A stretch of 64,000 nt of DNA, taken from contig JBGQGY010000002.1 of NCBI GenBank assembly GCA_041497675.1, positions 18,392 to 82,391 on the forward strand, written 5' to 3'. Below are positions 16,727 through 64,000 of the stretch, piece by piece. Position 1 is the stretch's first letter, and every line of letters starts with the position of its first letter. Source of the stretch: a bacterium (lineage in GTDB: Bacteria; Sysuimicrobiota; Sysuimicrobiia; Sysuimicrobiales; Humicultoraceae). A program made the position numbers and the translations under genes. The notes under the pieces were generated by a model that worked only from the letters and a program-made list of their open reading frames with translations, made no database searches and was not told where the DNA came from.

Positions 16727-16771
16727 TGGGAACCCTCTCGGATTCGTGACGACTGACGTTGACCTTTGCTC

Positions 16772-17725: not shown

Positions 17726-17752
17726 GATGCAGACCCCTCAAGAGTAGAATGC

Positions 17753-19276: not shown

Positions 19277-19307
19277 TGGTGTAGGTTCTGTCCGGCTGGG
19301 AGCTCAA

Positions 19308-19574: not shown

Positions 19575-19627
19575 CTAGCTGTCCTCCTTCTGGAAACCCG
19601 GCTTTTTGTGGTTCACCAGCCCGCACA

Positions 19628-22365: not shown

Positions 22366-22390
22366 CGACGCAAACGCTCCATGTCCTGCA

Positions 22391-36287: not shown

Positions 36288-36291
36288 AACG

Positions 36292-48462: not shown

Positions 48463-49089
48463 TCACGACGGCACGCGCGATTCCGCCGGTAACCGGTTCC
48501 CCAGCGTGATCACGTAGACAGACGCGCTCTCGCCCTGGTGGATCTCAGCACGATGCAGCAATGTGAACCCCGAGCGTTCATACACACCCGCTGCCGCGAC
48601 GTTGTCGACGGCGGTAGTGACGCGCACCCGCTCCACCCCACGCTGGGAAAACTCCTCAAGCACTGCGCGCACCAGCCCGTCGGCGGCGCCGGCGCCGCGG
48701 GCCTCCGGGTCCAACGCGATCGACAGCAGTTCGGCTTCTGGAAGCGCTCCCGCCGCCGCGTACCGGGACGTCTCAAAGAGACGGCGCAGCCCGCCTCCGA
48801 CGATCTTCTTGAACACGATCCGCGCAGCCAACGACCAGTTCCGCAACACGAACGTCCGGTAGAACCGCCGCCAGTGCACGACGGCGGTGCAGTACCCGAC
48901 CGGCCGACCATCCCGCTCGGCGATAAACGCAAAGCCCGAGGGCGAATCCAGCAGCGTCCGGTAGAACGTCTCAACGAACCCCGGACCCATGCCCGACAGC
49001 AGCCCCCACGGGATCTGCGCCAGGTGGAGCGCCGCAATCGCGCCGCTATCGGCCGCTGACGCTTTCCTGATTGAGACCGATACGGCCAT
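48463..49089 (-). CDS. GNAT family N-acyltransferase
   Basis: ELLSIALDPEARGAG, NVAAAGVYERSGF; start ATG 49089. Confidence 0.85.
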   Translation of the reverse strand: MAVSVSIRKASAADSGAIAALHLAQIPWGLLSGMGPGFVETFYRTLLDSPSGFAFIAERDGRPVGYCTAVVHWRRFYRTFVLRNWSLAARIVFKKIVGGGLRRLFETSRYAAAGALPEAELLSIALDPEARGAGAADGLVRAVLEEFSQRGVERVRVTTAVDNVAAAGVYERSGFTLLHRAEIHQGESASVYVITLGNRLPAESRVPS

Positions 49090-50674
49090 CCACTGCCGCC
49101 TGTGTGAGAAATGGAAGGAGCTTGCCACGGCCCGTGATGAGCGGCTCGCGGCGCATGATTCTGATGGTCTCTGCCTGACGCCATAGTGGTGGCATCATCT
49201 GACGCGGCCGCGTCGGATCGCGCAGTTCCTCGATGAACCTCGCCCGTACTCGATCCTCATCGATCCGCCCCACCGACGGGTTGATGATCAGGTACAGCCG
49301 TGTAAGATGCTGCTCGTCCTCGGCTTCCACGAGCTGGTAGTCCGTGCTTCTGCCGCCGAACTCCCGGGGCAGGACCTCCTCAAGGATGTGCACACAATCG
49401 GTGCCAAGTACCGTCGCGCCTTCCCCGGTGAGTTTCGAAAAACTCCGAATAGTGTCGAAGTGCGTGTGAAAGCCCAGTTCACCCCACAGGCATCCACAAG
49501 ATCGTTCGGTCACGTGTGCGAAGTCATCGCTCTCTGCGTTGATCAAGATCTTGGAGCTCGATATCAGGAGCGTGGTCAGGATCAACGCCTCGACCGCCTG
49601 CCCATCGGGCAGCGTGCGCCGATCGTGCAGGAGCCCGAAGCTGTCGGCCATGAAATGCACGTCGTCGATTGCCGTTGGCTGACCGCAGGCGCTCCCCACG
49701 GAGCCGAACTCTGTCAGCCCGTACCGCCCCGCGATTCGCGCACCGGCGTGGACAACCTCGGCGCGCTTCCCGGACGTCAGAGGCTCGCCGCTCACGATCA
49801 GTGTCACGCGGTCGAGGTCCGTCCCGCGTTGGCCCGCCAGTGCGGCCAGGCGCGTCGCCGCGCTGGGAGTGGTCGCTACGACACACTTTCCGTAGCGCGC
49901 GCGGACGGCCACGATCGCATCCACGACCGCCGCCGCGCCCGACAACGGGACATGCTCGAGCGGCGGCAACCGAAGTCCACGCGTCAGCCCCATCAGCCGG
50001 GCCAACGTGAACATCGTTTGGTGCAGTTGAGGTACTCTGTACGCTGAGAGATTTGTCAGGCTAAACCATCGCGCGGCCGCACGGCCGGCGTGGGCCAACG
50101 ACAGCCACCAGTTGATACCGGCATCGCGCGGCAGCCAGATGATCACCGGCCATGTACTCACACCAAGGGCCTCCATGAGCAGCAACCGGGCTGGTCCCCG
50201 CTGGACAGCAAGATAATTCAGCGATCCCGGCACCAGGGAGGCCTGACCGGTCGTTCCACCGGTGCGAACCTCAAATGACGGTACCAGCGTTGGGTTGTTG
50301 AAGTCGGCCTCTGTAGTTTCGAGCGCGAAATCGCCCCGGCGAATACGGGTCCGACACTTCAATTCCTCGAACGTGAGGTACACGCCGTCTTCTAACAGTG
50401 TCCTCAATGTCTCCTCGAGACCATGTCGCCGGACGTGTGCTTCAAGGCGGTCGGGTGTCCATCCAGCCCACTGTAGGAGTCGACGGTACGGACTCCTCGG
50501 GTAGGGCCAGATTGTCTTTCGCACGACCCCGACGAACATCTCTGCGCGGGCGGACAACCGGGCGCGCACCAGGGCCTTTGCATCATCAACCGTCGAAAAC
50601 CGGTACATCAGCGACGCCAGGCCGCCGGCAATCCGGGCGGCCGCTGGGAGGGTCGCAAGAGGCCGTAGACTCAT
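49046..50674 (-). CDS. Divergent ANL-type adenylate-forming ligase (CapK/PaaK-like), copy 2
   Basis: RTGGTTG, SGEPLT, RYGLTEFG, CGC, SFSKLTGEG, TGRGKL; colinear paralog of 34677..36287. Confidence 0.65.
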   Translation of the reverse strand: MSLRPLATLPAAARIAGGLASLMYRFSTVDDAKALVRARLSARAEMFVGVVRKTIWPYPRSPYRRLLQWAGWTPDRLEAHVRRHGLEETLRTLLEDGVYLTFEELKCRTRIRRGDFALETTEADFNNPTLVPSFEVRTGGTTGQASLVPGSLNYLAVQRGPARLLLMEALGVSTWPVIIWLPRDAGINWWLSLAHAGRAAARWFSLTNLSAYRVPQLHQTMFTLARLMGLTRGLRLPPLEHVPLSGAAAVVDAIVAVRARYGKCVVATTPSAATRLAALAGQRGTDLDRVTLIVSGEPLTSGKRAEVVHAGARIAGRYGLTEFGSVGSACGQPTAIDDVHFMADSFGLLHDRRTLPDGQAVEALILTTLLISSSKILINAESDDFAHVTERSCGCLWGELGFHTHFDTIRSFSKLTGEGATVLGTDCVHILEEVLPREFGGRSTDYQLVEAEDEQHLTRLYLIINPSVGRIDEDRVRARFIEELRDPTRPRQMMPPLWRQAETIRIMRREPLITGRGKLLPFLTQAAVDGRIGLNQESVSGR

Positions 50675-51861
50675 CTCCCTGCCGCCTCATCGCCGTGGTT
50701 ATACCCGAAACCATCCACGGCGCGTCCCCGCGCCAGCAACATGCGGTACACGTCGAGGATCTGCCCGATGATGCGGCGTTCGTCAAACGCGTCCAGCGCT
50801 TTCTTCCGGCTCGCCTGCCCGAACCGGCGCCGCATCTGCGGGTCATCGATCAGTTGCACGATCGCCCCCTCGAGCGCCCCGACATCTCTTGGCGACACCA
50901 GGAAGCCGTTGTCTCCTGCCGTCACGACCTCACGGCATCCGCGGATGTCGGTGAGGACCAGCGGCAGCCCCATGGCGGCCGCCTCAACCGCAGAACGCGG
51001 GAACCCCTCACGGTACGACGCCAGCACAAACAGGTCCATCGCAGCATAGAGATCGCGCACGTCGCGCCGCAGGCCAAGGAAGCGGATCACGCCGCGGGTT
51101 TCCAAATCCGCAATCGTCGCCTGCGGGATCGCGTCGCTCTTGTCCTCATCGCGCGGGCCGATCGCGATGAACCGCACGTCGCGGCCGGCAGCCCGAATGC
51201 GCTCAGCCGCCTCAAATACCTCGCGGAGGCCCTTCTCCCACACCAGCCGCCCTACCATCCCGACTACGACCGTCGCTTCATCGATGCCCAGCGCGGCCCG
51301 CACAGTGCCCCGGTCGACCGTTGCCGGGTCAAAGACCGTGAGATCCACGCCATTGCCAATGTACGCCGACCGGTCCGGCCGAGCAATCTTCAGCGCGCGT
51401 AGCAAATCCAGATCCTCTCGACTCTGGCAGAATTCAAAGTCCGAGCAGGCGGCGGCGATCCTCTCCATCGTCAGATATATCGCCCGCCGGACCGCACCAC
51501 CGTCAGTCCCGTACAAGCCATGCACGGTGTTCACGACGACCGGTGTCCCGGCCAGCCGTGCCGCGATCCGCCCAAGCACCCCGGTCTTCGGATTGTGCGT
51601 GTGGACGATGTCGAATCGGTGTCGTCGAAACAGCCTGAACAGGTCGAGGAATGCCCTCGCGTCGGCCGCGGGCGCCCAGGATCGCCGGAGCGCGGCAATC
51701 TCCAGATGACGGATGCCTTGGGCCTGCAGATCCGCCCCCCACGCGCCCGCCGCGCTGATCCCCGTCGGCTCAAATCCGGCCTCACGGTATGCCCGGAGCT
51801 GATTCCCGAGCAACAGGGCCAGACTGATGTCCGACGTGGTCACGTGTGCGAGCTTTGGCAT
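50671..51861 (-). CDS. GT4 glycosyltransferase (PglA/CapM-like)
   Basis: HTHNPKTG, TVHG, GNGVD, GRLVWEKG, SYREGFPRSAVEA. Confidence 0.92.
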   Translation of the reverse strand: MPKLAHVTTSDISLALLLGNQLRAYREAGFEPTGISAAGAWGADLQAQGIRHLEIAALRRSWAPAADARAFLDLFRLFRRHRFDIVHTHNPKTGVLGRIAARLAGTPVVVNTVHGLYGTDGGAVRRAIYLTMERIAAACSDFEFCQSREDLDLLRALKIARPDRSAYIGNGVDLTVFDPATVDRGTVRAALGIDEATVVVGMVGRLVWEKGLREVFEAAERIRAAGRDVRFIAIGPRDEDKSDAIPQATIADLETRGVIRFLGLRRDVRDLYAAMDLFVLASYREGFPRSAVEAAAMGLPLVLTDIRGCREVVTAGDNGFLVSPRDVGALEGAIVQLIDDPQMRRRFGQASRKKALDAFDERRIIGQILDVYRMLLARGRAVDGFGYNHGDEAAGR

Positions 51862-51865
51862 CCGC

Positions 51866-52297
51866 TCACCGGGTGATTTCAACGAGCGCAACCCCGGCAC
51901 TCACCTGTTCCCCGTCTTGTCTGACCGCCCATATCTCCGCTTCAACGGTTCTCGCCCCATCCTGAGTCGTCCTCACATCACGGATGCACCCGGCGCACCG
52001 CACGGTATCGCCGGGACGTATCAGACCCGTGTGCCGGACAGACAGGCGGCGGACCCATCCACTCGGTCCAACCCAACTGGTGATCATTCGCACCAACAGC
52101 GCAGTACGATGGTTCCCGCTTTGGACGACGTCAGATTGGTCCATGTACTCCAGGGCGTATGCGCGATCGTAGTGCAGCCGAATCCAGTTCTCCTGGTACC
52201 CGGCCCACCGCACGAAATCGGTCAGCGAAAGCGGGCCGATCTCGAGGCCTGGGATTTCGGCTCCAGCGACGGGTGTGGGTGCTTGCTGTGCTCGCAT
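51866..52297 (-). CDS. MaoC-like hot-dog dehydratase
   Basis: VRWAGYQENWIRLHYD..A, PGDTV; start 52297 (or 52315). Confidence 0.75.
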   Translation of the reverse strand: MRAQQAPTPVAGAEIPGLEIGPLSLTDFVRWAGYQENWIRLHYDRAYALEYMDQSDVVQSGNHRTALLVRMITSWVGPSGWVRRLSVRHTGLIRPGDTVRCAGCIRDVRTTQDGARTVEAEIWAVRQDGEQVSAGVALVEITR

Positions 52298-52311
52298 GAC
52301 GGGGCCGCCCA

Positions 52312-53460
52312 TCACACCCTGGCACCGTCCCGCGCTCCCGGAACCCTGGGTGCGGGTACAACACCGGCTGCCTCGAGCCGGGCGATGTCCTCGTGTGAGA
52401 ACCCCGCCTCGCGCAGGACCGTCGCGGTCTGCGCGCCGGGACCCGACACTCCTGAGGGGGGCGTGAGCCACGGCGTCGTCAACACCGGTACGTCCTGACC
52501 GTCGACGCGATGAAAGAACCTCCGCGCGCGTAGGTGCGGGTCATGAAGCAGAGCCTCTATGTCGTGCACCGGCGCCACGGGAATTCCGCGGGCCTGTGCC
52601 ATCTCGGACAGCTCCGCTTTCGTGAACCGCCGCGCCCACGACTCGAGCACGCCAAAGATTTCGGCCTGGTGCTCCATCCGAACCCGTTCGTCGTTCAGGG
52701 CAGCGTCGCGCAACCGCTCATCTCCAACCATCTCAACCAGGGTCTCCCACATACGTCGTTCGTTGGCCGAGATCACCACGTACCCATCGCGGCACGCAAG
52801 TGCGCCCGAGGCAGCGATGTGTGCGTGCCGGTTGCCCCCCCGCTTGACGACACGTCCCGAGAACGCCGCTTCGTACAGACCTTGCTGCATGAACGTGGCG
52901 AGCGCCTCATGCGCGCTCACGTAGATCAATCGACCCGATCCACTATCGCGCGCGTGCCGATATCCGAGGAGACAGGCCAGCGCCGCATACGTGGCCGTGA
53001 CCGCGTCAGCGAGCCCACCGCCGAGCAGACAGGGCGCCTGACCGGGCATGCCCGTGATGGACATCAAACCACTCTGCGCGTAGCGGACGATCTCAGCGCT
53101 CGTGCGGCCGGCGCCCGCCGTCGGCGCAAATGGTCGGACGGCCACCCAGGTGAGTCTGGGACTACCGGCCCGGCAGCGTGCATACACGTTCTCTGCGGCA
53201 TCGAAGACGGGTTCGATACCTTCCACCACTGCGTCGGCCACCCCGCACAGGCGCGCCAGCACCTCGACCCCTTCGTCGCGTCGCAGATCGATTCCGACGC
53301 TCCGCTTGCCGGCGTCCAGACATCGAGCGGGGGCTTCGGGACCTTCACGTCGGCCCGGCACGTCGATACGCACTACATCGGCGCCCAGGTCGGCCAGCAG
53401 CCGTGTCGCGTAGGCAACCGCGCCGTCGGTAATGTCCAGGACACGAAGCCGCTCCGTCAT
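52312..53460 (-). CDS. Family III CoA-transferase, BbsE-like subunit
   Basis: LRVLD, LADLGADVVRID, AGKRSV, AQSG, CRDGY; lacks the N-terminal GP motif; start ATG 53460. Confidence 0.85.
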   Translation of the reverse strand: MTERLRVLDITDGAVAYATRLLADLGADVVRIDVPGRREGPEAPARCLDAGKRSVGIDLRRDEGVEVLARLCGVADAVVEGIEPVFDAAENVYARCRAGSPRLTWVAVRPFAPTAGAGRTSAEIVRYAQSGLMSITGMPGQAPCLLGGGLADAVTATYAALACLLGYRHARDSGSGRLIYVSAHEALATFMQQGLYEAAFSGRVVKRGGNRHAHIAASGALACRDGYVVISANERRMWETLVEMVGDERLRDAALNDERVRMEHQAEIFGVLESWARRFTKAELSEMAQARGIPVAPVHDIEALLHDPHLRARRFFHRVDGQDVPVLTTPWLTPPSGVSGPGAQTATVLREAGFSHEDIARLEAAGVVPAPRVPGARDGARV

Positions 53461-54008
53461 CACACGCCCAGCGTTCGCGCCGTCGTCTGGTGCACGACCG
53501 CCACCGGCTGCCCGCTCTGATCCGAGTAGCGGCGCTCTTCCGTGATAAACACGGCAGCACCCGTCCGCCCGTCTTTCAGCGCGATGTCCGTGATCTTGAA
53601 CCTGACGGTGAGCCAGTCGCCGATGCGTAATGGCCGAATCCACTCGATGTCGGTTGCGGCATTAAGCCGCCCGCGTTCGCCCGGGACCACGATGGTAGCC
53701 GCCAACCCACCCAAAGATGGAAACTCACGTTCGCCCCGGTTGTCGATAACATCCCGGCCGGGCTCGGGCCGCAAAATGTCGAGGATCATGGCGGGTGGCG
53801 CGAGGGCTCCCACGCGGCTCGGGTTGGATTCTGGATCGACCGCGCCCCACAGCGGATTGCCGTCGCCGGCCGCGTTCACATAGCGGCGCACGTCGCTCCA
53901 CTCGATGGGTCCCGGCGCCCGCACGGGTTCACTCTCATGCCCGATCCACCGCCGCAGGGCGTTGAGAATGTCTGCTGGTGTCTGCGAGACTGGTCCCATA
54001 GCCGACAC
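53460..54008 (-). CDS. MaoC-N/FAS1-like hot-dog dehydratase subunit
   Basis: IEWSDVRRY..A.GD.NPLW, APP, RPLRIGD, KDGRTG. Confidence 0.8.
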   Translation of the reverse strand: MSAMGPVSQTPADILNALRRWIGHESEPVRAPGPIEWSDVRRYVNAAGDGNPLWGAVDPESNPSRVGALAPPAMILDILRPEPGRDVIDNRGEREFPSLGGLAATIVVPGERGRLNAATDIEWIRPLRIGDWLTVRFKITDIALKDGRTGAAVFITEERRYSDQSGQPVAVVHQTTARTLGV

Positions 54009-55213
54009 TACTGAAGCGCGCCGGAAGCCTTCAAACCGGCAATCTCCGCGTCGCTCATCCCAACCACCTGACGCAGGACCTCATCGGTGTGCTGGCCCAA
54101 CAGCGGGCCCGCGTGGTCGAGCCTGGCCGGCACGCCCTCAATGTGTATTGGGTTGGAGAGCATGGGCATCTCGCCAATCGCCGGATGAGTGATGACCTGT
54201 GTCAACGGTGCATACGTCGCAAGATCGGCCAAGGCCCCCACGTTGGTGCGGACCGCCGCGGCCGGCACCCCTGCAACCTGGAACACGCGTTCCACCATAC
54301 GGGCGTCTCGCCCGAGGGTCCAGGTCTCCAGCCGGCGATCGATGTCTTCTGCCGCGGCGCGCCGGCCTTCCAGCGTCTGATAGCGCGCGTCGTCGAGCAC
54401 GCCGTCCCCCACGATCCGCACCAGCGCCTCCCACTCCGTAGCGCTGCCGACGCTAATCACACACCATTCGTCGTCTCCCGCGCAGCGATAACATCCCTGC
54501 GGCACGCGGTGCGCCGATCGGTTGCTCTGACGCGCCGGCCCGCCGTTGCCTTGCGCCTCTGCCATTAACGCTCCCAATGGCAGTGCATTCGACTCGTACT
54601 GGCTCAGATCGATCCAGCAGCCCTCACCGGTGTGATCGCGCCGCTCTAAGGCCGCGGTGACAATGACCGCGGCGTGCAGCCCCGCCATGAAGTCCGCCCA
54701 CGAGTTCGAGACACCGATCGGCGGATCACCCGCGCGGCCGGTGGCCAGCATCAATCCCGACAGCGCTTGGATCACAGCGTTGAAGCTCACCCACTGCGCG
54801 CACGGGCCGGTATGCCCCAACCCCGCCATGCTCACGTAGATCAGCTGGGGATTGCGCGCGCGCAGGCGATCCGGCCCAAGCCCCAGTCGCTCCATGACCC
54901 CTACACTGAAGTTCTCAGTCAGGACATCACACTGCTGGGCCAAAGCGATCGCGACCTCGGCTCCCTGAGGATGCTTGAGGTTGATGGCGACCGAACGCTT
55001 GTTGCGGTTCAAACTGGCGAAGAGCGTGCTCCCTTCCTGCTCGCGCGGGCCGTCCGGTTTGAAGGGGCCCAACCGCCGCCCTCCCTCTACCGCCGTCGCG
55101 CTCTCAACCTTGATGACGTCCGCGCCGAAGTCCGCGAGGAGTCCCGTGGCAAACGGGCCGGTGACCACGTGCCCGAAGTCCAGGATGCGGATGTGCTCGA
55201 GCGGTCGGATCAT
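54008..55213 (-). CDS. Family III CoA-transferase (CaiB/BaiF, BbsF-like)
   Basis: PLEHIRILDF, TGP, NRNKRS, ENF, WADFMAG (candidate catalytic Asp), LGQHT. Confidence 0.92.
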   Translation of the reverse strand: MIRPLEHIRILDFGHVVTGPFATGLLADFGADVIKVESATAVEGGRRLGPFKPDGPREQEGSTLFASLNRNKRSVAINLKHPQGAEVAIALAQQCDVLTENFSVGVMERLGLGPDRLRARNPQLIYVSMAGLGHTGPCAQWVSFNAVIQALSGLMLATGRAGDPPIGVSNSWADFMAGLHAAVIVTAALERRDHTGEGCWIDLSQYESNALPLGALMAEAQGNGGPARQSNRSAHRVPQGCYRCAGDDEWCVISVGSATEWEALVRIVGDGVLDDARYQTLEGRRAAAEDIDRRLETWTLGRDARMVERVFQVAGVPAAAVRTNVGALADLATYAPLTQVITHPAIGEMPMLSNPIHIEGVPARLDHAGPLLGQHTDEVLRQVVGMSDAEIAGLKASGALQ

Positions 55214-55653
55214 GCGTCCCGCGACGACACGACACTCGGGATCGGTTCAAACAACGGCAGCGCGTACTGCTCGGTGATCGACCGGACCACCACACGTACC
55301 GGCAGGCCGATGTGCACCGATTCCGGCGGGCAGTTCACGACATTGCTAACCATCATCGGCCCTTCGTCGAGTTCAATCGCGGCATACACATACGGCACAG
55401 GAAACGCCGGCGAGTGCTGCACGCGCTGCACCGTGAAGGTGAAGACCTTGCCCTGGCCGCTGGCCCGCGTCCACATGAGGTTTTCAAGATATGGATCATT
55501 CGAGTGTTCACGGCACCCCGCCGGAGGCCACCGCCAGGTCCCGCAGCGACGACAGCGAAGGAGCAGAAACTCGCCGCGCCGCAACCCCTCCCAGAACGGT
55601 CTCATCTCCTCGGTTGGGTTGGGGACGGCTCCCTGCCACGCGACGGTGCTCAT
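55210..55653 (-). CDS. DUF35 zinc-ribbon/OB-fold protein
   Basis: PFWEG, CRRCG, SGQGKVFTFT, ELDEGP; ATGA-coupled to the thiolase. Confidence 0.88.
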   Translation of the reverse strand: MSTVAWQGAVPNPTEEMRPFWEGLRRGEFLLLRCRRCGTWRWPPAGCREHSNDPYLENLMWTRASGQGKVFTFTVQRVQHSPAFPVPYVYAAIELDEGPMMVSNVVNCPPESVHIGLPVRVVVRSITEQYALPLFEPIPSVVSSRDA

Positions 55654-56858
55654 GCTGCGTGGCCCCGCGGGTGTTTCGTCAGAACGATCGTGGAGTGAAT
55701 CGAGCACATCTGGCCCGAGAGGACCTCCGCGCCGTGCCCGGATACCAGCGCGACGTCCGCATCGGGCACCTGCCGCGCGCCACCCTCACCTTGCACCTGG
55801 ATGATCGCCTCGGCAAAGCCCGTCAGGTTGCCCAAATGGTGCGATGAGAGCAGCCCGCCACCGGTGTTGACCGGCACCTCGCCGCCCGGCCCGGTCCGCA
55901 TTTCCGCGGCAAACGCCCCGCCTTCACCCTTCCGGCACCACCCATAGTCTTCCAGCTGAATGATGACTTCACCGGTGAAGCAGTCGTAGAGTTGCGCGAC
56001 ATCCACATCCGCCACGCTGATGCCGGCCTGGCGGAACGCGGCGTCGCGCGACGTGCGCACCGCCAGCGTCGTGTAGTTGGTCCGCTCCCACCAGAGGTCG
56101 CTCATCTGCTCGCCGAAGCCGATCCCCGCGACGTAGACGGGTGCGTTCCGCGCATCTCGCGCGCGGTCGGTCGTCGTAACGACAAACGCCGTCCCGCCAT
56201 CGCTCTGCAGGCAGATATCGAACAACCGGTACGGCCAGACGACCACCGGGGATTGCTGATGCTCGTTGAGTGTCAGAGGCCGGCCGTGCATGTAGGCCCG
56301 CGGGTTTCGGTTTGCCCACTGCCGCGTGGCCACGGCCACAGCGCCGAGCTGCTCGCTCGTCGTCCCAAACTCGTGCATGTGCCGGCTGGCCAGCAGACCG
56401 TGATAGGATGCTGCATTCGCACCAAACAACGGGGCAACCGCGTTGGCCTTCGGCGCATACGCCTGCCCGCGCTTCCCCGACACCTGCTGGGCCGCCTGTG
56501 CGCGGCTCCAGTCGTCCCGTGCGCCCGCGCACACGACATAGTCGGCGATACCATGATCCAACAACCCGGCCGCGGCAATCAAAGCGTGTGCGGCGTATTC
56601 ACCGCCGCGTCCAACATTTTCCATGTACAGGTTGACGGGCAGGTTCAGCACCCTGGCAAACGAGTCGTGATGCCTGGGACGGATCCCGCCCCCCGTGTCG
56701 CTCAACATCTGGATCGCGGCGCCGATATCTGTCGCCTGCAGGCCGGCGTCATCGATCGCCAGACGGGCAGCCTCGACCTCGAGCATCAGCACCGATCGCC
56801 CCGGCAGGTGTCCAACGTCGGTCACGCCGAGCCCGATCACCGCGTACCGGCCTGTCAT
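55650..56858 (-). CDS. SCP2-type thiolase-fold protein (Ltp2/BbsB-like)
   Basis: ICLQSDG, QLYDCFT, LEDYG, NTGGGLLS, RQV; the usual N-terminal nucleophilic Cys is not evident (NVGRGGEY). Confidence 0.85.
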   Translation of the reverse strand: MTGRYAVIGLGVTDVGHLPGRSVLMLEVEAARLAIDDAGLQATDIGAAIQMLSDTGGGIRPRHHDSFARVLNLPVNLYMENVGRGGEYAAHALIAAAGLLDHGIADYVVCAGARDDWSRAQAAQQVSGKRGQAYAPKANAVAPLFGANAASYHGLLASRHMHEFGTTSEQLGAVAVATRQWANRNPRAYMHGRPLTLNEHQQSPVVVWPYRLFDICLQSDGGTAFVVTTTDRARDARNAPVYVAGIGFGEQMSDLWWERTNYTTLAVRTSRDAAFRQAGISVADVDVAQLYDCFTGEVIIQLEDYGWCRKGEGGAFAAEMRTGPGGEVPVNTGGGLLSSHHLGNLTGFAEAIIQVQGEGGARQVPDADVALVSGHGAEVLSGQMCSIHSTIVLTKHPRGHAA

Positions 56859-57748
56859 CCTCTGATGAATGATTCAGGCGGCTTTGGGCCCCACAGGTTC
56901 ACCGCAGCAGATCGTCCGCTTACAGGATCCCAGACACCAGGCCGGTAGGTCTGCTCGTCTGGAATGTGCGCGGCCTCAGCCTGGAGTTCCCACCGGATTC
57001 CCCAAGGATCGACGAAGTACACGAAGATGCTGTGTCCGGGGCCGTGACGGCCCGGGCCGAACTCAACGGAGACGCCGTGCGCCTCGAAATGATTGAGCAT
57101 TCGTAGGACATCGTCCCATGACTCGATCTCGAAGCCAATGTGATGCACTCCTTTGGTCGCCGATTGCACCAGCGCGATGGTCGCGTGCTCGCTGGTGCAC
57201 CGCACCCAGGAAAACTGCCCCGGGATCTGATCGGACAGACGAAAGTCCATAAACTGCTGCCACCATTGCGCACTCGCGCCGGCATCAGCAGCCTTCACGT
57301 TGATGTGCGAGAGCTTGATCAGGTTCGCCGGCGGAGTGCCGGCAGGCCGCGCGACGGGCGCCTGAGACGCGACCAGTTCGCACAGATAGCCGTCGGGATC
57401 CTGCAGGCGCACTGCCGGACCGTGCAGCGGCTCGAACACCGCGGGGCCGTCGATGCTCAGCCCGCGGCGGCGGAGTTCCACCGCGGCGGCGGCCAGTGCG
57501 GACGCATCGGGTACCGTCAATCCGTAGTGATCAAGGCGAGTGGACTCCCCCGGATACAACACGAGTTCATGGTGCGCAACCATCGGGGCCCCGGTGGGCA
57601 GCGTGCTCATCACAATCGCGCCCGTCGCTCGATCGTCCCGGGTGATACCCAGACCGAGGACCCGCGCATAGTAGGCCGCTGTCGCCCGAGGATCCGGGAC
57701 GCGCAGGGTGACGTGATCGAATCCGCTTACCGGCAGTCGCTCGGACAT
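56855..57748 (-). CDS. Two-domain VOC protein, type I extradiol-dioxygenase-like
   Basis: KLSHIN, VHHIGF, GPGRHG..H, VYFVDPWG...WE: candidate 2-His-1-Glu triad; start ATG 57748. Confidence 0.8.
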   Translation of the reverse strand: MSERLPVSGFDHVTLRVPDPRATAAYYARVLGLGITRDDRATGAIVMSTLPTGAPMVAHHELVLYPGESTRLDHYGLTVPDASALAAAAVELRRRGLSIDGPAVFEPLHGPAVRLQDPDGYLCELVASQAPVARPAGTPPANLIKLSHINVKAADAGASAQWWQQFMDFRLSDQIPGQFSWVRCTSEHATIALVQSATKGVHHIGFEIESWDDVLRMLNHFEAHGVSVEFGPGRHGPGHSIFVYFVDPWGIRWELQAEAAHIPDEQTYRPGVWDPVSGRSAAVNLWGPKPPESFIRG

Positions 57749-57786
57749 CGCCACACCTCTCTGTGCCTTCCGTTGACCCGCACGTG

Positions 57787-58692
57787 TCACTGAACCGGGC
57801 CACTTCCGGGACTCACTCTGGAACTGGCTCCGGCGGCGCCGCGCACCCCGCCGTTCTCGGAAGATGCGCTGCCGGCGCCGAGGAGGGCCTTGGTGGCCCG
57901 AAACAGCCAGAACCCATCGGTGCGCAAAACGGGGTATCGCCACAGCCGAGAGAGATCAAGGTCAAGGTACGCGTTCTTTCCCGGACCGCCCAGCGTCACC
58001 GTCGAGTACCGTGCAGCCACGAGCCGCTCCGTCTCCGGCGACCACCAGCCCCAAGGGTACGCAAAGTGTCTCGGCGCAGCGCCCAGCCGTTGTTCGATGA
58101 GTTGGTCGCATTCCTCGAGCTCGCGCATGGCGTCGTCCGCCCCGACCCGCGAGAGGTCGGCATGCGTGGCGGTGTGGCCGCCGAACGTGATGAGACCGGA
58201 GTGCATCATGCTCGCAGCCATCTCCCATGTCATCGGCTTTGGTCGCTGCTCCACAGGGGATTGCCGGAACCCCCCAAAATCAAACGGGCATTGTGTCTCG
58301 ACGTACCTCGCCGGGAGATACACCGTTGCCGGGAGCTCGAACCGCCGCAGGACCGGGTAGGCGAACTCATACGTATCGCGGTACCCGTCATCGAACGTGA
58401 TCGCGACGACGTCGCGGTTCGCATGCCGAGCCGCGCGGCGGGTGGCAATCTGGGCCACTTCATCGAGCGAGACGACCAAGCAGTTCCGCCGCAAGTAACG
58501 CATCTGTCGTTCGAACACGCTCACACCGAGGTCGACATCGCTTCGAGTCCCGCCACCAATCCGGTGGTAGAGCAACACCACCACGCCGGGCCGCCGCTCG
58601 TGTTGCCAGATCCGGAACGGCAGCATGCTCCACCGTACGAGGCTGCGCGCGACGCGCCCTTGCCCACGTATCCAGGCGCCGAGTCCGTCCAT
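57787..58692 (-). CDS. Polysaccharide deacetylase (CE4), copy 2
   Basis: LYHRI, TFDDGYRD, GHTATH, FAYPWG; no signal peptide. Confidence 0.88.
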   Translation of the reverse strand: MDGLGAWIRGQGRVARSLVRWSMLPFRIWQHERRPGVVVLLYHRIGGGTRSDVDLGVSVFERQMRYLRRNCLVVSLDEVAQIATRRAARHANRDVVAITFDDGYRDTYEFAYPVLRRFELPATVYLPARYVETQCPFDFGGFRQSPVEQRPKPMTWEMAASMMHSGLITFGGHTATHADLSRVGADDAMRELEECDQLIEQRLGAAPRHFAYPWGWWSPETERLVAARYSTVTLGGPGKNAYLDLDLSRLWRYPVLRTDGFWLFRATKALLGAGSASSENGGVRGAAGASSRVSPGSGPVQ

Positions 58693-58700
58693 CGTCGTGT

Positions 58701-59744
58701 CTAAAAGACCTCGAGATCGCCGAGGGCGAGACGCCACGATGCGAAGGACGTCGGGTCGAAGCCTAGGTCATCGGCCAGAGGCCTGATGGTAAGGTGCGGA
58801 CCGCCGGGCAGTGGCAGAAATCCTGTTCGAAGGAGGACTCGCCGGTGCGGGGTGTTCCACGCACAGTGGGCGACGGCGTAATCCGCGCGGGTCAGCCCGA
58901 GCAGTTCGCGGACGACGCGTTGCCCGTGGCGCTCATCGGCCATCAACAGCTCGCACACCATCAGTTCCGACAGCCCGCGCCGATGTGTCAGCCGAAAGAT
59001 CACAGCCGCTTGGGGTCGCCCGGCCCCGACCCAATGGGCGCCATACTGCAACGAGGGCACTTGGGCGTACCGCCACCGAAGAAACGTCGTCGATCGCGCG
59101 GTCCGGACACCGTCAGCCAAGTGCACATCGTCACGAGCCAGCAGGTCCGTCACACCGGGCTCGTTCTGTAGCATGTCGTCGACGGAGCGCCACCGGCCGA
59201 GCGTGTCCTGTTCACCGTCGCCGGTTCCGTTCCTGGCCCCGCGCCACCGCGAGCCAAGCACGGACCGGACCATGCGAAAGGCGTGCAGCGGTCGAACGAA
59301 TACCAGCGCCCGCCCCACGTGGGTCCACCCCAGCTTGAGATATCCGGGCATGCTGTACCGGTTTGGCGTGTTGAACACGAGATGCACCCCGGTCGCCCGC
59401 GCGCGTTCAAGACAGGCCGCTGTCAGGTTGGAGAAGATTCCCATTCGCTGGTATTGCGGGTGTGTCGCGGTGTCCACGGCTCGGACACCAAGAACCGTCT
59501 GCCCCCGCGCGCGAAACTGCCAGCGCAGGAAGGCGCGCAACCCCACGATCCGGTCATCGTCGGCCAGCAGCATCAGGGATTGGCCAAACGGGTTGTCTCG
59601 ATGCTTCCAACGGAAGAACGCCGTCGAGCGCTCGAACGCCCGCCCGCTGCCCAACGTGAGATTGAGCAATCCCAGGACCGGCGCCTCGTCTGCGGGCTCG
59701 TATTCACGGATGGTAAAACGCGGTTTGACCGTCGCCACCGTCAC
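58701..59744 (-). CDS. GNAT family acyltransferase
   Basis: WKH..NPFG, DTATHPQYQRMGIF, FNTPN..S.PGYLKLGW. Confidence 0.85.
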   Translation of the reverse strand: MTVATVKPRFTIREYEPADEAPVLGLLNLTLGSGRAFERSTAFFRWKHRDNPFGQSLMLLADDDRIVGLRAFLRWQFRARGQTVLGVRAVDTATHPQYQRMGIFSNLTAACLERARATGVHLVFNTPNRYSMPGYLKLGWTHVGRALVFVRPLHAFRMVRSVLGSRWRGARNGTGDGEQDTLGRWRSVDDMLQNEPGVTDLLARDDVHLADGVRTARSTTFLRWRYAQVPSLQYGAHWVGAGRPQAAVIFRLTHRRGLSELMVCELLMADERHGQRVVRELLGLTRADYAVAHCAWNTPHRRVLLRTGFLPLPGGPHLTIRPLADDLGFDPTSFASWRLALGDLEVF

Positions 59745-60871
59745 GCCCGTCCACCCTGCAGCAGCCCTGAGTACAACTGCTCTATCGTGCGAACCATCTG
59801 GGGAACACCGTAACGGGCCTGAGACTTGGCGCGCGCCGCGGCGCCCATGCGCCCCCGAAGGTCGGGCGAGGCCAGCAGCCTACCGATTCCGTCGGCAAGC
59901 GCCCCTGCATCCTGAGAAGGCACCAGCACGCTGCTGGTCTCGTCGGTCGCTTCGGGCACACCGCCAACCCGGGTGACGACGCTGGGCTTGCCCAGGGCCA
60001 TCGCCTCAAGCAGCGCGATCGGCAGACCTTCGTGCAGCGACGACAGGACAAACACGTCAGCGGCTGCCACCAGCCGCACCGCGTCGGGTCTGAACCCCGT
60101 GAAGACAAAGCGTCCCTCGAGTCCGTGTCTGCCCGCTTCCGCCTTCAGCGCCTCGGCCAACGGCCCCAGACCGACCAGCAGGAAGCGCGCGGCTGGATAC
60201 TGCGTCAGCACCTGGGCCGCCGCGGCCAGGAGGTACGTGTGCCCCTTCTTCGGCGTCATGTTGCCGACGGTTGCCACTACCGGCGCATCGGACGCGAACC
60301 CAAACTCCCGTCGGACGGCGTCGCGCTCCACGGGCATGGCGGCCAGCGCGTCTGCGTCGACGGCATTCTGCACGGTGACGATAGCCGGGCGCCCGTTGGC
60401 GTAGCCTTCCACAGCGCGGCGCACTTCATCAGAGACCGCGACCACCAGTGTGTTCATCCGGTAGGTCCGCTGATTCAGCACGCGCGTAGGGAAGGCGTAC
60501 CGATCGGGGACGTTGTGCTCCGTGTATACGACGTACCGTACGCCGGCCAAGCGCGCGGCGATCCGACCGCAGATGCCCGCGACCGGAAGGTGCGCGTGTA
60601 CCACATCGATCTGCTCACGCCGTAAGAGCGCCACCAATCGCTGGAGCGGACGTGGGTCGACCGGGAACCGCATGCCCAGATTGTGCACCGGGACGCGTGC
60701 CGCCTCGAACGCCGGCACCAGCGCGGCCTTCCACGGCAGCAGATACGCAATCTGATAGTCGAACCGACTCCGGTCCAAGTGAGGCAGCGCCGCTTCGAGC
60801 AGCCGCTCCGCTCCCCCGACGCCGAGTCCCTTGATCAGCATGAGGATCCGTGCGCGCCGCGGCTCAGGCAT
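59741..60871 (-). CDS. GT4 glycosyltransferase
   Basis: GGAE, YTEH, KKGH, SLHEGLPIALLEAM; start ATG 60871. Confidence 0.92.
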   Translation of the reverse strand: MPEPRRARILMLIKGLGVGGAERLLEAALPHLDRSRFDYQIAYLLPWKAALVPAFEAARVPVHNLGMRFPVDPRPLQRLVALLRREQIDVVHAHLPVAGICGRIAARLAGVRYVVYTEHNVPDRYAFPTRVLNQRTYRMNTLVVAVSDEVRRAVEGYANGRPAIVTVQNAVDADALAAMPVERDAVRREFGFASDAPVVATVGNMTPKKGHTYLLAAAAQVLTQYPAARFLLVGLGPLAEALKAEAGRHGLEGRFVFTGFRPDAVRLVAAADVFVLSSLHEGLPIALLEAMALGKPSVVTRVGGVPEATDETSSVLVPSQDAGALADGIGRLLASPDLRGRMGAAARAKSQARYGVPQMVRTIEQLYSGLLQGGRA

Positions 60872-62021
60872 GGGGTCTCTGACCGTTGCGCAGCCCGGCG
60901 TACGCGTCCGCATACTGCACCGCGACTCGGCTGATCTCATACGCCTGGCACGCCGTTCGCGCGGCGGCACCCATCGAGTCGCGCAGCGCACGATCCTCAG
61001 CCAACCGGGTCACGGCCGCCCGAAAGCCCGGCTCGTCACCAGCGGCGACCAGGAGGCCCGTGCGCTCGTGATAGACCACTTCGTCGATCCCGCCGACGCT
61101 GTACGCCACAACCGGCAGCCCGGACAACCCGGCCTCGATGACCGCCGCCGGCATGCCCTCGGTCAAACTCGGCAAGACCAAAAGGTCGGCGCCGGCCAGA
61201 AGCTCAGCCACGTCACTGCGCGCGCCGGCCACCCACGTGAACGTCTGCAGTCCGGCGTGGTCGATCATTGCCCGGATGGCGTTACGCTCCGGGCCGTCCC
61301 CGACCAACCACAAACGAACGCGCTTCCCCGCATCGCGCATCGCAGCCACGGTCCGGACGAGCACTGCGTGGTTCTTCTCCGCGGATAGGCTGCCGACGTG
61401 GATCAGCACGACGTCACCGGGAAGCACACCCGCCTGCGCACGCACACCGGCGCGTGTCAGCGCGGATCGAGAGAGGAACGGTTGGGAATCGACGCCGTTG
61501 GGAATCACCCTCACCCGATGCGCGGGTATACCCATCTGCTCGCGGAGTTCTTCCGCGGCTCGACGGCACACCGCGACGACGAGGTCGGCCTGCCCAAACA
61601 GCCATCGGTACGTGGTCATGCGCAACACGTCCCGTCGCCAGTACGATGGCATCCCGATCGTGCGGTAGACGAGCGGCCAGCGGCCGCGGCTCAACGCTCG
61701 TGTGATGGCGAGGTATTTCAGGGTTGCCGAGCCGTTGGCCTGAACAACAGGATAACCCGCCGCCGCAATGCGACGACCGAGGGCACGTACCACTGCCCAC
61801 GATAGGGGACCAACGGGGCGACGCGAACCGAGGGCCCCACCCCACACGCCGGCCTCCGTCGCCTGACCCATGAACGCTTCGTCTCCGGGGAAGAGGCTCA
61901 CGACGGTTGCCGGGCAGGTCATGCGACGCAGCGCGACTGAAAGTTGTACGGCGAATACCTCTGCCCCTCGGCGTTGGGGAGCCTGAATGACTTGGAGGAC
62001 TCCGGCGTTGTCAGACATCAT
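60864..62021 (-). CDS. GT4 glycosyltransferase
   Basis: RGAE, IPNGVD, EKN, SLTEGMPAAVIEA. Confidence 0.92.
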   Translation of the reverse strand: MMSDNAGVLQVIQAPQRRGAEVFAVQLSVALRRMTCPATVVSLFPGDEAFMGQATEAGVWGGALGSRRPVGPLSWAVVRALGRRIAAAGYPVVQANGSATLKYLAITRALSRGRWPLVYRTIGMPSYWRRDVLRMTTYRWLFGQADLVVAVCRRAAEELREQMGIPAHRVRVIPNGVDSQPFLSRSALTRAGVRAQAGVLPGDVVLIHVGSLSAEKNHAVLVRTVAAMRDAGKRVRLWLVGDGPERNAIRAMIDHAGLQTFTWVAGARSDVAELLAGADLLVLPSLTEGMPAAVIEAGLSGLPVVAYSVGGIDEVVYHERTGLLVAAGDEPGFRAAVTRLAEDRALRDSMGAAARTACQAYEISRVAVQYADAYAGLRNGQRPHA

Positions 62022-62052
62022 TTACGGAAGGGTTGGAACTGACCAGCGTGCA

Positions 62053-62086
62053 GAGAGGAGGATCGGCCCTAGGCCGTCCTCCTCTC
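62053..62086. other. Strong intergenic RNA hairpin without a U-tract
   Basis: GAGAGGAGGA-T-CGGCC-CTA-GGCCG-TCCTCCTCTC: 15-bp stem, one bulge, 3-nt loop. Confidence 0.6.
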
Positions 62087-62147
62087 GCAACTTACCTGGC
62101 GCTGTCTGTGCCCGTGTGCCCTATGCGCCGCCCGGACGAATCTCGCT

Positions 62148-64000
62148 CTACCGCGGTTGCGGTTCCGGTCTTAGAATGGCACCGGCATGCGCGTTCTGCC
62201 CGGACAAGATCGTCAAGGGTCGGGAGTCGCTAATGAACCCTGCAGCGGTCACGGTGCGGACATAGCTCCCCGCCGGAACGGCCGGGCTCTGAACAAACCC
62301 GGTGGCGTCGGTGATTCCAGTCCAGACCGAACCAAGCTGGACGCGCGCTCCCACGACTGGTACGAGCCGGCCGTTGACGTACGTCATGAAACGGCCGCTG
62401 TATGTCCCGGACCCTGTAGGTACGGGCGCCACCGTCGGGGGTGCCGTGGGTCCAGGTACCGGCGCTGAAACTGGTGCCGGCGCTGCCGTCGGGGTCGCCG
62501 TCGGACGTGCCGTAGCGGTCGCGGTCGGCGCTGCCGTCGGGGTCGCCGTCGGACGTGCCGTAGCGGTCGCGGTCGGCGCTGCCGTCGGGGTCGCCGTCGG
62601 GGTCGCAGTAGGTGTCGGTGCCGGCGCCGGCGCCGTAGCGTTCCGTTGGAGCTGGATCACTTGCGTAAAAGCGTTGTTCCCGTTCGCATCGGTCACTTCC
62701 GCATACAAGTGCGCCCAGCGCCTTGTCCAACCGGCGCTCGACCAGCTGAACGTGTACGGCGCGGTCGTCCGCGTCCCCACCACTCGCTCGTCGACGTAGA
62801 AGGTGACTTGGGTGATCGCGGCCGCAGCCGGTACGACGTTGACCTGCACGTTGACCGTGCCGGTGATCGGGGCGCCGTCTGCCACGCCCATCAGAGTCGC
62901 CTGCGGCGGGCCGGGGCGAATCATCAGGGGTCCGGGCAGCGGATCCAGCCACGAATCGGTCCCAGAGTTGTAGGCCGCATCCGTATCCGGCCGCGGCCGG
63001 TCCCGCCGCGTCAGCCGGAAGTTCGCCGGCAGCGACGTGGTCCCTGAGTAGTTGTTTACCACGAACCACGCGTTGGAGTTTCGTTGCCACCCGAAGTCGA
63101 ACGGCCGCGCCGCGCTGAACCGATTGTCCGTGAACTGGATGTACGTCGGTGCGCAATAGAAGTTCTGTGGATCGCTATCCGACCCATTGGTGCACGCGCT
63201 ATGGTCCTGCGAGACATCGACCTGATGCCCTGTAAACGTGTTTCGGGAAATCAGGGAGGGCAGGGTCGGGTCCGGCACAATGAAGTATCCCGCCAGGAAC
63301 AGCGCGATCGTCGAGGAGCCCGGCGTCGCCGTTAACTCGCTGTCCACCAGATAGGTCGAGATGATCGACGAGCTGAAGTTGGCATCGCCGTTCTGGTACA
63401 ACCGCGCCCGGTGGAACCGCAGACCGTTCCCATAGGCCCCGATCTTGAGCCCCACGTTGTTCCGCCACGCGCGCAGGTCTACCACGCTCGTCGGACCGTC
63501 ATTGTTCGTCCACGTAAACATGCCCGTCCCGCTGTTCGAATGCGCTTCGTTGTGCACCATCCGCAACAGGGCAAAGCCCGCCTGCGACCGGATCCGCTCC
63601 GCGATGTGATATCCGGAATCATCCCATCCCATCGCCCATGACCCCGACGCCACGTTCCCGATCAGTGTGCTGTTGAACGAGTGGATCCAGAACCCGGACG
63701 CCCGGATCCGGCTGTCCGCCGGGCTCCGCAGCGCGCCTTCCCGATAGACCACCCGCGCCGACAGATTCCCGATGAGCACGTTGTCGACCGAGATCATCGT
63801 CAGCGAGTCTTGGTCCACCGGTTCCCCAATGAAGTACCCCACGCCCGTCGTCCGGTAGCCCACCGTGTCTTCCACCGTGATCCCGTTCGACGCATGGATA
63901 TTCATGAAGTTGTTGTCGGACCGCCAGATCGATGCGCCCCGCACGGACATCCCCCGGGACGTATCCGCCATCAAGTGGAAGTGCACCGGGTACCGGCCCA
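62148..64000 (-). CDS. 5'-truncated large protein: TMEM2/CEMIP (G8-associated)-like beta-helix, Ig-like domain, Pro/Thr/Ala linker and carboxypeptidase-regulatory-like tail
   Basis: The frame stays open to the window edge (GRYPVHFHL...IHASNGITVEDTVGY); Asn-rich beta-helix repeats; VTFYVD...APYTFSW Ig-like motif. Confidence 0.7.
   Translation of the reverse strand, partial: GRYPVHFHLMADTSRGMSVRGASIWRSDNNFMNIHASNGITVEDTVGYRTTGVGYFIGEPVDQDSLTMISVDNVLIGNLSARVVYREGALRSPADSRIRASGFWIHSFNSTLIGNVASGSWAMGWDDSGYHIAERIRSQAGFALLRMVHNEAHSNSGTGMFTWTNNDGPTSVVDLRAWRNNVGLKIGAYGNGLRFHRARLYQNGDANFSSSIISTYLVDSELTATPGSSTIALFLAGYFIVPDPTLPSLISRNTFTGHQVDVSQDHSACTNGSDSDPQNFYCAPTYIQFTDNRFSAARPFDFGWQRNSNAWFVVNNYSGTTSLPANFRLTRRDRPRPDTDAAYNSGTDSWLDPLPGPLMIRPGPPQATLMGVADGAPITGTVNVQVNVVPAAAAITQVTFYVDERVVGTRTTAPYTFSWSSAGWTRRWAHLYAEVTDANGNNAFTQVIQLQRNATAPAPAPTPTATPTATPTAAPTATATARPTATPTAAPTATATARPTATPTAAPAPVSAPVPGPTAPPTVAPVPTGSGTYSGRFMTYVNGRLVPVVGARVQLGSVWTGITDATGFVQSPAVPAGSYVRTVTAAGFISDSRPLTILSGQNAHAGAILRPEPQPR
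62479..62600. repeat. 48-bp tandem repeat (about 2.5 exact copies) encoding a PTATPTAAPTATATAR linker
   Basis: GGCGCTGCCGTCGGGGTCGCCGTCGGACGTGCCGTAGCGGTCGCGGTC at 62479 and 62527, partial copy at 62575. Confidence 0.9.

Follow-up and report, generated by a model that had tools for sequence, protein, structure and literature searches.

A predicted aromatic ring-cleavage cassette within a glycan locus of the Humicultoraceae, with a possible role in surface-glycan decoration

A seven-gene cassette within a glycan cluster

We analyzed a 64,000-nucleotide stretch of DNA from a bacterium of the family Humicultoraceae (G000:C2:18392-82391, which we will call the window; G000, the organism's own genome, is 98.6% complete). 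A minus-strand glycan cluster spans ~13.7-62 kb of the window and encodes GT4 and GT2 glycosyltransferases, two flippases, a DegT aminotransferase, a PglF-like dehydratase, a phosphoglycosyl transferase, two deacetylases, four GNATs, a carbamoyltransferase, and several hydrolases. Within this cluster lies a cassette of seven intact open reading frames (ORFs), all on the minus strand and with no internal stops, whose products are predicted to open aromatic rings and to process the resulting acids as coenzyme A (CoA) esters:

56855..57748, minus strand: predicted VOC extradiol ring-cleavage dioxygenase, two-domain, 297 amino acids (Pfam Glyoxalase, twice)
55650..56858, minus strand: thiolase-fold protein, predicted Sal-type retro-aldolase, 402 amino acids (PF22691; PDB matches 4U4E, 6OK1, and 9MYR)
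55210..55653, minus strand: DUF35 (zinc ribbon and OB fold) partner, 147 amino acids (PF01796, PF12172)
54008..55213, minus strand: family III CoA-transferase, predicted catalytic subunit (Asp174), 401 amino acids (PF02515)
53460..54008, minus strand: MaoC-like subunit (FAS1_DH region), predicted non-catalytic partner, ~180 amino acids (PF13452)
52312..53460, minus strand: second family III CoA-transferase subunit, 382 amino acids (PF02515; 9FN0_A is the second-best PDB match)
51866..52315, minus strand: MaoC hot-dog-fold hydratase subunit, ~145 amino acids (AlphaFold model, pLDDT 85.7)

The genes on either side are:

57787..58737, minus strand: polysaccharide deacetylase, upstream neighbor (PF01522; same neighbor in the relatives G001, G002, and G012)
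50671..51861, minus strand: GT4 glycosyltransferase, downstream neighbor (same neighbor in the relatives G001, G006, and G012)

Our ORF calls and coordinates bear out the layout in an initial annotation of this DNA, which described seven co-directional genes, mostly joined by overlaps of 1-4 bp. From the VOC gene to the last MaoC gene, the junctions are -4, -4, -4, -1, -1, and -4 bp. The deacetylase gene lies 38 bp from the VOC gene, and the GT4 gene starts (at 51861) 4 bp beyond the MaoC gene. As that annotation also stated, no regulator, transporter, or mobility gene lies within the cassette in this window. A scan of 49000-63000 found one promoter-like site (1.6 expected) and eight terminator-like sites (6.9 expected), none of them in either outer junction. 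The cassette may be co-transcribed with the glycan genes, and the adjacent GT4 gene is the first of a GT4-GNAT-phosphoglycosyltransferase-DegT-PglF-like core. GC content at third codon positions (GC3) is 0.769 for the cassette versus 0.771 for the glycan genes. The genes for the thiolase-fold protein, DUF35, and both MaoC proteins are single-copy in the genome (E 1e-5).

Because contigs that are ~97% alike, from two other runs (X1 and X2), bridge the outer junctions, the gene arrangement is not an assembly artifact: the VOC-deacetylase junction is bridged in X1, and the MaoC-GT4 junction in both X1 and X2. Together with synteny in relatives, these contigs rule out an assembly chimera.

Predicted activities of the cassette proteins

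By its domains and metal ligands, the VOC protein is a predicted type I extradiol dioxygenase, and we predict that it performs O2-dependent meta-cleavage of a catechol. The ligands are His148, His202/203, and Glu254 in the C-terminal domain, and the His/His/Glu motifs are present in all seven orthologs. It scores below the cut-offs of the models for catechol 2,3-dioxygenase (TIGR03211; 115.6 bits, cut-off 320.2) and HpaD (99 bits, cut-off 321.4). Its close homologs carry the source label "Armatimonadota bacterium".

The initial annotation described the thiolase-fold protein as lacking cysteine. This was wrong: it has five cysteines, and a YDCF motif (Tyr291, Cys293) is found in 7/7 orthologs. 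Only the position of the thiolase nucleophile is altered, with Cys replaced by Gly (ENVGRGGE) in all seven; this aligns with the Gly-bearing loop of Ltp2 and Sal. In Sal, the Tyr and Cys of the YDC motif form the catalytic dyad of an acetyl-CoA-releasing retro-aldolase, while Ltp2 uses YDHF plus a second Tyr (PMC12329534). The cassette protein has YDCF instead of YDHF. Since it keeps the dyad of Sal and has His at the position of the second catalytic Tyr of Ltp2 (Tyr344), it is Sal-like and not Ltp2-type. It shares with Sal the Gly at the nucleophile position and the DUF35 partner. Its score against the BbsB model is 93 bits (cut-off 750), and no steroid-pathway genes were found in the annotated cassette loci. 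The characterized YDC-motif enzymes cleave (PMC12329534), and the motifs of the cassette protein fit retro-aldol cleavage better than the building of acyl chains. In the DUF35 protein, the CxxC...CxxH pattern corresponds to Cys34, Cys37, Cys47, and His50. This pattern, which recalls the Cys3His1 finger described for Shy (PMC12329534), is present in all six full-length orthologs.

The two CoA-transferases resemble BbsEF, with two family III subunits of which one has the catalytic Asp. The best PDB match of the first is 9FN0_B (benzylsuccinate CoA-transferase; E 2e-61), and its Asp is kept in 6/6 orthologs. In the second subunit, Asp152 is present in 5/6 orthologs and is Asn in G019. The gene annotation of the window contains no bbs or bss neighbors.

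The MaoC protein encoded at the end of the cassette is predicted to be the catalytic subunit of a hydratase. The best Foldseek match of its model is ChsH1-ChsH2 (E 1e-9), which supports a hot-dog fold. (R)-enoyl-CoA hydratases of the MaoC family have a canonical Asp-x4-His dyad (PMC11321319), and here it is Asn-x4-His. Specifically, the motif is YQENWxxxH, with His48 kept, Asn43 at the canonical Asp, and an invariant Glu42 one residue before it; the motif is the same in 15/15 aligned sequences. The protein was also aligned to ChsH1 and HadB. The MaoC-like protein encoded at 53460..54008 is missing the catalytic His (GDGNPLW; alignment of 6). From this missing His and from gene order, we infer that the two proteins pair as the catalytic and non-catalytic subunits of one hydratase. 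The catalytic subunit belongs to a small subfamily: of 53 candidates, 10 proteins were found at E<=1e-10, with invariant YQENW..HY and QSG.HR and with the change from Asp to Asn.

Taken together, the proteins suggest a pathway. The dioxygenase would open the 1,2-diol (catechol-type) ring of an aromatic acid; the heteromeric CoA-transferase would form the CoA ester of the resulting unsaturated acid; the MaoC pair would hydrate this enoyl-CoA ester; and the YDCF aldolase with DUF35 would split off acetyl-CoA. Ring opening, CoA-ester formation, hydration, and acetyl-CoA release are the known chemistry of these families, and we put the steps in the order that seems most plausible.

The cassette in related genomes

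Orthologs of the thiolase-fold protein (76-86% identical) are present in 7 of the 34 genomes of the family and in 7 of the 94 genomes of the class: G000, G001, G002 (genus g1), G012, G019 (g11), G006 (g5), and G042 (g6). In all seven carriers, the cassette touches the same glycan locus. The deacetylase is upstream in four carriers (including G000) and the GT4 is downstream in four, as listed above; the G002 assembly covers just the upstream side. A PaaK-like gene flanks the cassette on both sides in G019, and in G042, the neighbors are a binding-protein gene and then GT4. The two sets of genes are also interleaved: G019 has a GT2 and five dTDP-sugar/methyltransferase genes inserted after DUF35 and before the first CoA-transferase, and in G042, a GT4-GNAT pair separates an NMT1 binding protein from its ABC subunits. 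The glycan locus of G042 also includes genes for an ATP sulfurylase, an adenosine phosphosulfate (APS) kinase, two sulfatases, and two phosphodiesterase-family proteins (L109 3610-13600), which suggests sulfation in that lineage.

As a control, we examined 158 loci of more distant homologs of the thiolase-fold protein (93 of these loci are at least 10 kb), and just one had a glycan-gene match. The closest of these distant homologs (49-55%) sit with CoA-transferases, racemase/enolase-superfamily enzymes, amidohydrolases, and transporters. Within the organism's own genome, none of 18 other catabolic paralog matches shares a contig with a glycan-gene match, which is a weak control because many of the contigs are short. 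Searches of plasmids gave only distant matches (up to ~31% for VOC and ~40% for the thiolase) and no cultured cassette-bearing organism. A metagenome scan gave no thiolase ortholog above 62% among the matches listed.

An ortholog of the adjacent GT4 is found in 15 genomes of the family, six of them carriers and nine non-carriers. Among the findings that the initial annotation named as counting against its proposal were close homologs mainly in catabolic operons and absence of the cassette from this locus in relatives. Each of these two was seen in part. In two relatives, the closest homologs belong to a full catabolic operon, which itself lies inside the glycan locus, and 9 of the 15 GT4-bearing genomes lack the cassette.

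The cassette derives from a catabolic operon

In G006 and G042, genes for an isochorismatase-family amidase, an HcaB-like dihydrodiol dehydrogenase, a small ORF, the alpha and beta subunits of a Rieske dioxygenase, and a thiamine pyrophosphate (TPP) enzyme precede the dioxygenase. This untrimmed operon has both a branched-chain-type ABC importer and an NMT1-type importer. The HcaB-like dehydrogenase scores above the cut-off of NF004849, and the best PDB match of the Rieske protein is naphthalene dioxygenase (2B1X). In G042, the whole catabolic operon lies after PaaK-like genes and before GT4; in G006, one contig ends with GT4-GT4-GT4-GNAT-deacetylase and another starts with MaoC-GT4. (The contig joins are inferred, with an overlap of 141 bp in G001, 19 bp in G006, and none in G042.) We therefore conclude that the cassette is the lower half of an aromatic catabolic operon that is embedded whole in their glycan loci.

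We built a tree of the locus from five core glycan genes and the cassette, with 11 genomes (G002 was left out because it has no core genes). All six carriers fall into a single clade (100/100). G042 groups with its genus-mates on the rpoB tree and not on the locus tree. A tree that held the four trimmed genomes together was rejected (approximately unbiased test, p=0.003), so the trimmed form is not one clade, yet the identical seven genes remain. These results fit a history in which the operon was inserted once, the locus later moved as a unit, and the upper half was lost on two or more occasions. No orthologs of the lost dehydrogenase, TPP enzyme, or binding protein were found in G000 or in G001, G002, G012, and G019 (59-93% complete). 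The amidase is present at 72% in a separate operon of G012 and as a fragment in G019.

The seven cassette genes have remained under purifying selection after the loss of the importer and the upper pathway. Between G000 and G001, the ratio of nonsynonymous to synonymous substitution rates (dN/dS) is 0.09-0.18 for the cassette versus 0.09-0.15 for seven flanking genes. (We left out DegT, whose dN/dS of 1.77 is out of line with its 86% protein identity and is presumably an extraction artifact.) This rules out pseudogene decay, and a recent foreign insertion is ruled out by GC3 and dS equal to those of the neighbors. We also considered whether the Rieske dioxygenase on contig C45 of the same genome might be the displaced upper pathway, but it is a paralog from a separate clade. 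With its position conserved in 7/7 carriers, inheritance along with the locus, and purifying selection, the cassette behaves as a stable part of the glycan locus. Conserved position and co-inheritance with the cluster are also what we looked for in a glycan-tailoring system.

The full operon, with its two importers, Rieske dioxygenase, HcaB-like dehydrogenase, TPP enzyme, and amidase, raises a distinct possibility, which we rate as nearly as probable as a role in glycan decoration: the carbon-harvesting operon could have been inserted once into a long cluster of co-oriented genes that shuffle, with its lower half still degrading catechols that are supplied by other enzymes and borrowing the promoter of the glycan genes. 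The single origin of the cassette locus and the catabolic company of the outside thiolase homologs fit this scenario, and purifying selection is silent as to what is being selected. Yet orthologs of the importer and the amidase have been lost, and we found no orphan upper pathway in the own genome that would need the cassette: the Rieske dioxygenase is a paralog, and a dioxygenase/dihydrodipicolinate synthase (DHDPS)-like pair on contig C32 is separate.

A second aromatic module beside glycan genes

Four of the nine cassette-free genomes with GT4 hold an unrelated, analogous aromatic module beside or among their glycan genes:

L118 3836-10782: second module of G007
L259: second module of G041
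L114: second module of G022
L121 1736-15323: second module of G003

In G022, G007, and G041, the module includes an importer, a distant extradiol dioxygenase, a Rieske pair, and a short-chain dehydrogenase/reductase (SDR). In G007 and G041, a GT87 gene lies between the Rieske beta subunit and the SDR, and the module sits among other glycosyltransferases, on a contig that does not carry the GT4. The G022 module shares its contig with the GT4 and lies at the distant end of the locus. In G003, a PaaK-like gene is followed by genes for two paired CoA-transferases, for an acyl-CoA dehydrogenase, and for an importer, and the dioxygenase gene lies between a GT4 and a GT2. The modules of G003 and G022 have a p-hydroxycinnamoyl-CoA hydratase/lyase that scores above the cut-off, and G007 has a 75% homolog. 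This enzyme would carry out the same net reaction as that predicted for the MaoC pair plus the aldolase.

When 20 dioxygenases are placed on one tree, those of the cassette form one clade (support 97) and the four from the second modules another (support 100). Both are separate from stand-alone paralogs, which are kept by G001, G002, G012, G003, and G000. Of the seven stand-alone dioxygenases, six have a GntR gene within 1.2 kb, and the 14 stretches taken from the 11 embedded modules contain no such gene. One stand-alone operon has a GT-C gene ~7 kb away. The recruitment of a second, unrelated module in four relatives, and the absence from the embedded modules of the GntR gene that accompanies the stand-alone ones, both argue against catabolism that merely happens to be co-located with the glycan genes.

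As for the other five cassette-free genomes, G010, G011, G014, and G018 have no dioxygenase match at E 1e-25, and the match in G017 lies elsewhere. The glycan locus of G014 has NMT1 and ABC genes, with no aromatic-module enzymes within the stretch seen.

One of the stand-alone operons, on contig C152 of G012 (L245 1280-13977), encodes an ABC importer, GntR, an amidase, a sister of the cassette dioxygenase, an EthD-like protein, an amidohydrolase, a DHDPS-like protein, and a molybdenum hydroxylase; parts of it recur in G001, G002, G003, and G023. It looks like an undescribed pathway for N-heteroaromatic compounds. The amidase, amidohydrolase, DHDPS-like protein, and molybdenum hydroxylase that accompany the sister dioxygenase hint at a nitrogen-containing ring as the substrate. 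Since an amidase travels with this subfamily of dioxygenases, the substrate of the cassette might contain nitrogen as well. The PDB matches of the amidase include 4L07 and 3OT4, which we take to be maleamate amidases. Kynurenate, indole, and maleamate are, we presume, candidate substrates, and the evidence here favors none of them.

Acyltransferases and ligases of the glycan cluster

If the cassette feeds the glycan, then its product must be handed over to a sugar. Two genes downstream of the GT4 are candidates:

49046..50674, minus strand: PaaK-like adenylating enzyme, candidate ligase (no Pfam hit; weak PDB match to 9S3L, a phenylacetate-CoA ligase, E 0.02)
48463..49128, minus strand: GNAT adjoining the amino-sugar core genes (found in cassette-free relatives too)

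The initial annotation proposed that the cassette had been repurposed to build an unusual acyl-CoA for the GNATs. Its place in the glycan locus and its likeness to BbsEF, ChsH, Ltp2, and Sal are supported, and the evidence speaks against the role of the GNATs and the building direction. All of the GNATs have counterparts in cassette-free relatives; for the upstream GNAT, these are in G003, G010, G011, and G018. The core-adjoining GNAT does not show cassette-linked divergence, as its ratio of carrier/non-carrier divergence is 1.43, against 1.42-1.85 for its neighbors, among the six genes compared.

A related idea is that the pathway runs in the building direction, with aldol addition of acetyl-CoA to a carbonyl followed by dehydration or by exchange of CoA; the GNATs would then receive a hydroxy-acyl-CoA, for example a donor of the malyl type. 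N-malyl and similar groups are found on bacterial amino sugars (PMC3210612), Bbs enzymes can be run in reverse in an engineered host (PMC10818641), and amino-sugar core genes with a GNAT directly follow the cassette. But the dioxygenase, whose step is irreversible, is kept in 7/7 carriers; the YDC-motif enzymes described above cleave; the divergence of the core-adjoining GNAT is unremarkable; and the analogous second module uses a hydratase/lyase. We consider the building direction to be quite improbable.

PaaK-like ligases are at least as plausible as the GNATs for the hand-over because a PaaK-like protein, VpsH, tailors a Vibrio polysaccharide (VPS) by adding glycine (PMC13463779). The smaller acid or aldehyde left by the aldolase could be attached to sugars by these ligases or by transferases of the cluster. 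PaaK-like genes are present in 20 of the 34 family genomes, with up to 12 copies in one, so they are not specific to the cassette; in most cases seen they are in or beside the glycan locus. The window has a second copy at 34677-36578, which is 56% identical to the one at 49046..50674.

The PaaK-like gene between GT4 and the GNAT is variable. A 1545-bp block (window 49119-50665) is missing in two near-identical strains, and the gene is also missing in G001, G006, and G012. The short word GTGGATGG is shared by both ends of the block, and no mobility gene is near.

Other features of the glycan locus

Within the glycan cluster, window 15413-23287 encodes an adenylation domain, a PigA/RedW-like dehydrogenase (466 bits, below the cut-off of 500), a flavin halogenase, and two exosortase-type hydrolases. 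This proline-to-pyrrole/halogenase set is shared by the carriers G006 and G012. At window 38884-39567, a 227-amino-acid ORF with no Pfam or NCBIfam hit is kept in six carriers (44-71%) and in G003 (33%). Two or three ORFs on the opposite strand (window 10379-13722, plus strand), which have no Pfam hit and are kept in several relatives, mark the end of the locus.

The pyrrole set, the two deacetylases, and the several hydrolases of the locus, along with the degradative chemistry of the cassette, could also indicate turnover or detoxification. The module would then destroy or recycle what the cell's own decorated glycan releases, namely aromatic or pyrrole substituents and their precursors. This seems unlikely: the pyrrole set was not seen in the fetched stretches of the carrier G042, the ancestral operon begins with uptake from outside, and the trimmed module lacks a hydroxylase for converting a released ring to a diol.

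Does the cassette feed glycan decoration?

We favor the view that degradative chemistry has been domesticated to feed the decoration of a surface glycan, with a probability of roughly 40%. Position alone is not persuasive, given that all seven carriers go back to a single origin and that genes are shuffled in this locus. A functional link to the glycan becomes more likely when several findings are combined: the operon was trimmed more than once to these seven genes, losing its dedicated importer and upper pathway; selection is undiminished, and the cassette is retained beside stand-alone catabolic paralogs; the usual regulator is absent; and equivalent chemistry, assembled from unrelated parts, was recruited a second time.

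Several observations weigh against this view. The seven carriers derive from one allele of the locus, so they represent one insertion and not seven. The ancestral operon, with its importer and Rieske dioxygenase, resembles an ordinary growth pathway. The glycan does not need the module, because in 5 of the 9 genomes that have this glycan core and lack the cassette, the stretches searched contain no module of this kind. Acetyl-CoA, the sole predictable product, is not scarce. Among the carrier and non-carrier loci that we compared, we found no transferase whose presence or divergence follows that of the cassette. Free shuffling of genes, as illustrated by the PaaK-like gene that is missing in near-identical strains, could produce interleaving without function. 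And fragmented assemblies weaken both the control from the own genome and the absences. We keep the odds below even because we found no transferase dedicated to the cassette and because five of the relatives build on this core with no module of the kind.

A more detailed proposal, which we consider doubtful, is that this family twice recruited ring-cleavage modules of unrelated parts into its glycan operon. Aromatics derived from plants or amino acids would be converted to a ring-opened substituent and ligated by a PaaK-like enzyme, with the cassette version using a Glu/Asn-His MaoC and a free-standing DUF35 with a Sal-type aldolase.

If glycan decoration is the function, then this bacterium would use aromatic rings, opened by oxidation, as building material for its surface coat, and the turnover of aromatics in soil would be tied to cell-surface chemistry. 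Even if the cassette is catabolic, it predicts a CoA-dependent lower pathway that does without a meta-cleavage hydrolase, a Sal-type aldolase that acts on a new substrate, and a MaoC subfamily whose dyad is altered. The relatives, with a full operon, a twice-trimmed operon, an alternative module, or none, form a natural comparative series for the domestication of catabolic genes.

Comparison with known systems

In literature drawn mostly from non-subscription journals, we found no system with this combination of genes, nor ring-cleavage genes in polysaccharide clusters. The nearest relatives of its core are the steroid complexes Shy-Sal (Comamonas) and ChsH1-ChsH2-Ltp2 (Actinobacteria), which likewise combine a thiolase-fold aldolase, DUF35, and a MaoC hydratase (PMC12329534, PMC11321319). 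The aldolase of the cassette has the YDC dyad and the Gly of Sal, its DUF35 has the Cys3His1-type pattern of Shy (PMC12329534), and its MaoC-like partner, like ChsH2, is a MaoC subunit without the catalytic His (PMC11321319). Unlike in those complexes, the cassette's DUF35 is a free-standing gene, and its His-bearing MaoC has Asn at the canonical Asp. Sequence identity is low, no acyl-CoA dehydrogenase or steroid genes are near the cassette, and its neighbors in the operon are genes for an extradiol dioxygenase and two CoA-transferases, along with the glycan genes.

The CoA-transferase pair corresponds to BbsEF, which acts with the BbsAB thiolase/DUF35: both have two family III subunits, and both chains of 9FN0 match the cassette pair. 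However, the cassette's CoA-transferase genes are split by the MaoC-like gene, and its thiolase-fold partner lacks the nucleophile. Also unlike Bbs, the cassette includes an O2-dependent dioxygenase, and the bss and bbsCDGH genes are missing.

The untrimmed relatives have Rieske alpha and beta subunits, an HcaB-like dehydrogenase, and an extradiol dioxygenase in common with aromatic operons of the Hca, Nar, and Bph types. The predicted net reaction of the cassette, hydration and retro-aldol cleavage of an enoyl-CoA, is that of the hydroxycinnamoyl-CoA hydratase/lyase routes. In contrast to Hca, Nar, and Bph, we saw no meta-cleavage hydrolase, 2-keto-4-pentenoate hydratase, class I/II aldolase, or regulator in the operon, which is sited inside a glycan cluster.

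There are partial precedents for each end of the proposed pathway. LmbB1 is an extradiol dioxygenase that cleaves L-DOPA towards the acyl precursor of lincomycin (PMC4780272), in which an amide link joins an amino acid and an amino sugar (PMC4351081). It differs in being single-domain and in belonging to an antibiotic cluster that is not known to have a CoA-transferase/MaoC/aldolase set. VpsH is a precedent for polysaccharide tailoring by a PaaK-like enzyme, and it differs in adding glycine (PMC13463779). Neither LmbB1 nor VpsH joins ring cleavage to a surface polysaccharide, as we propose that the cassette may do.

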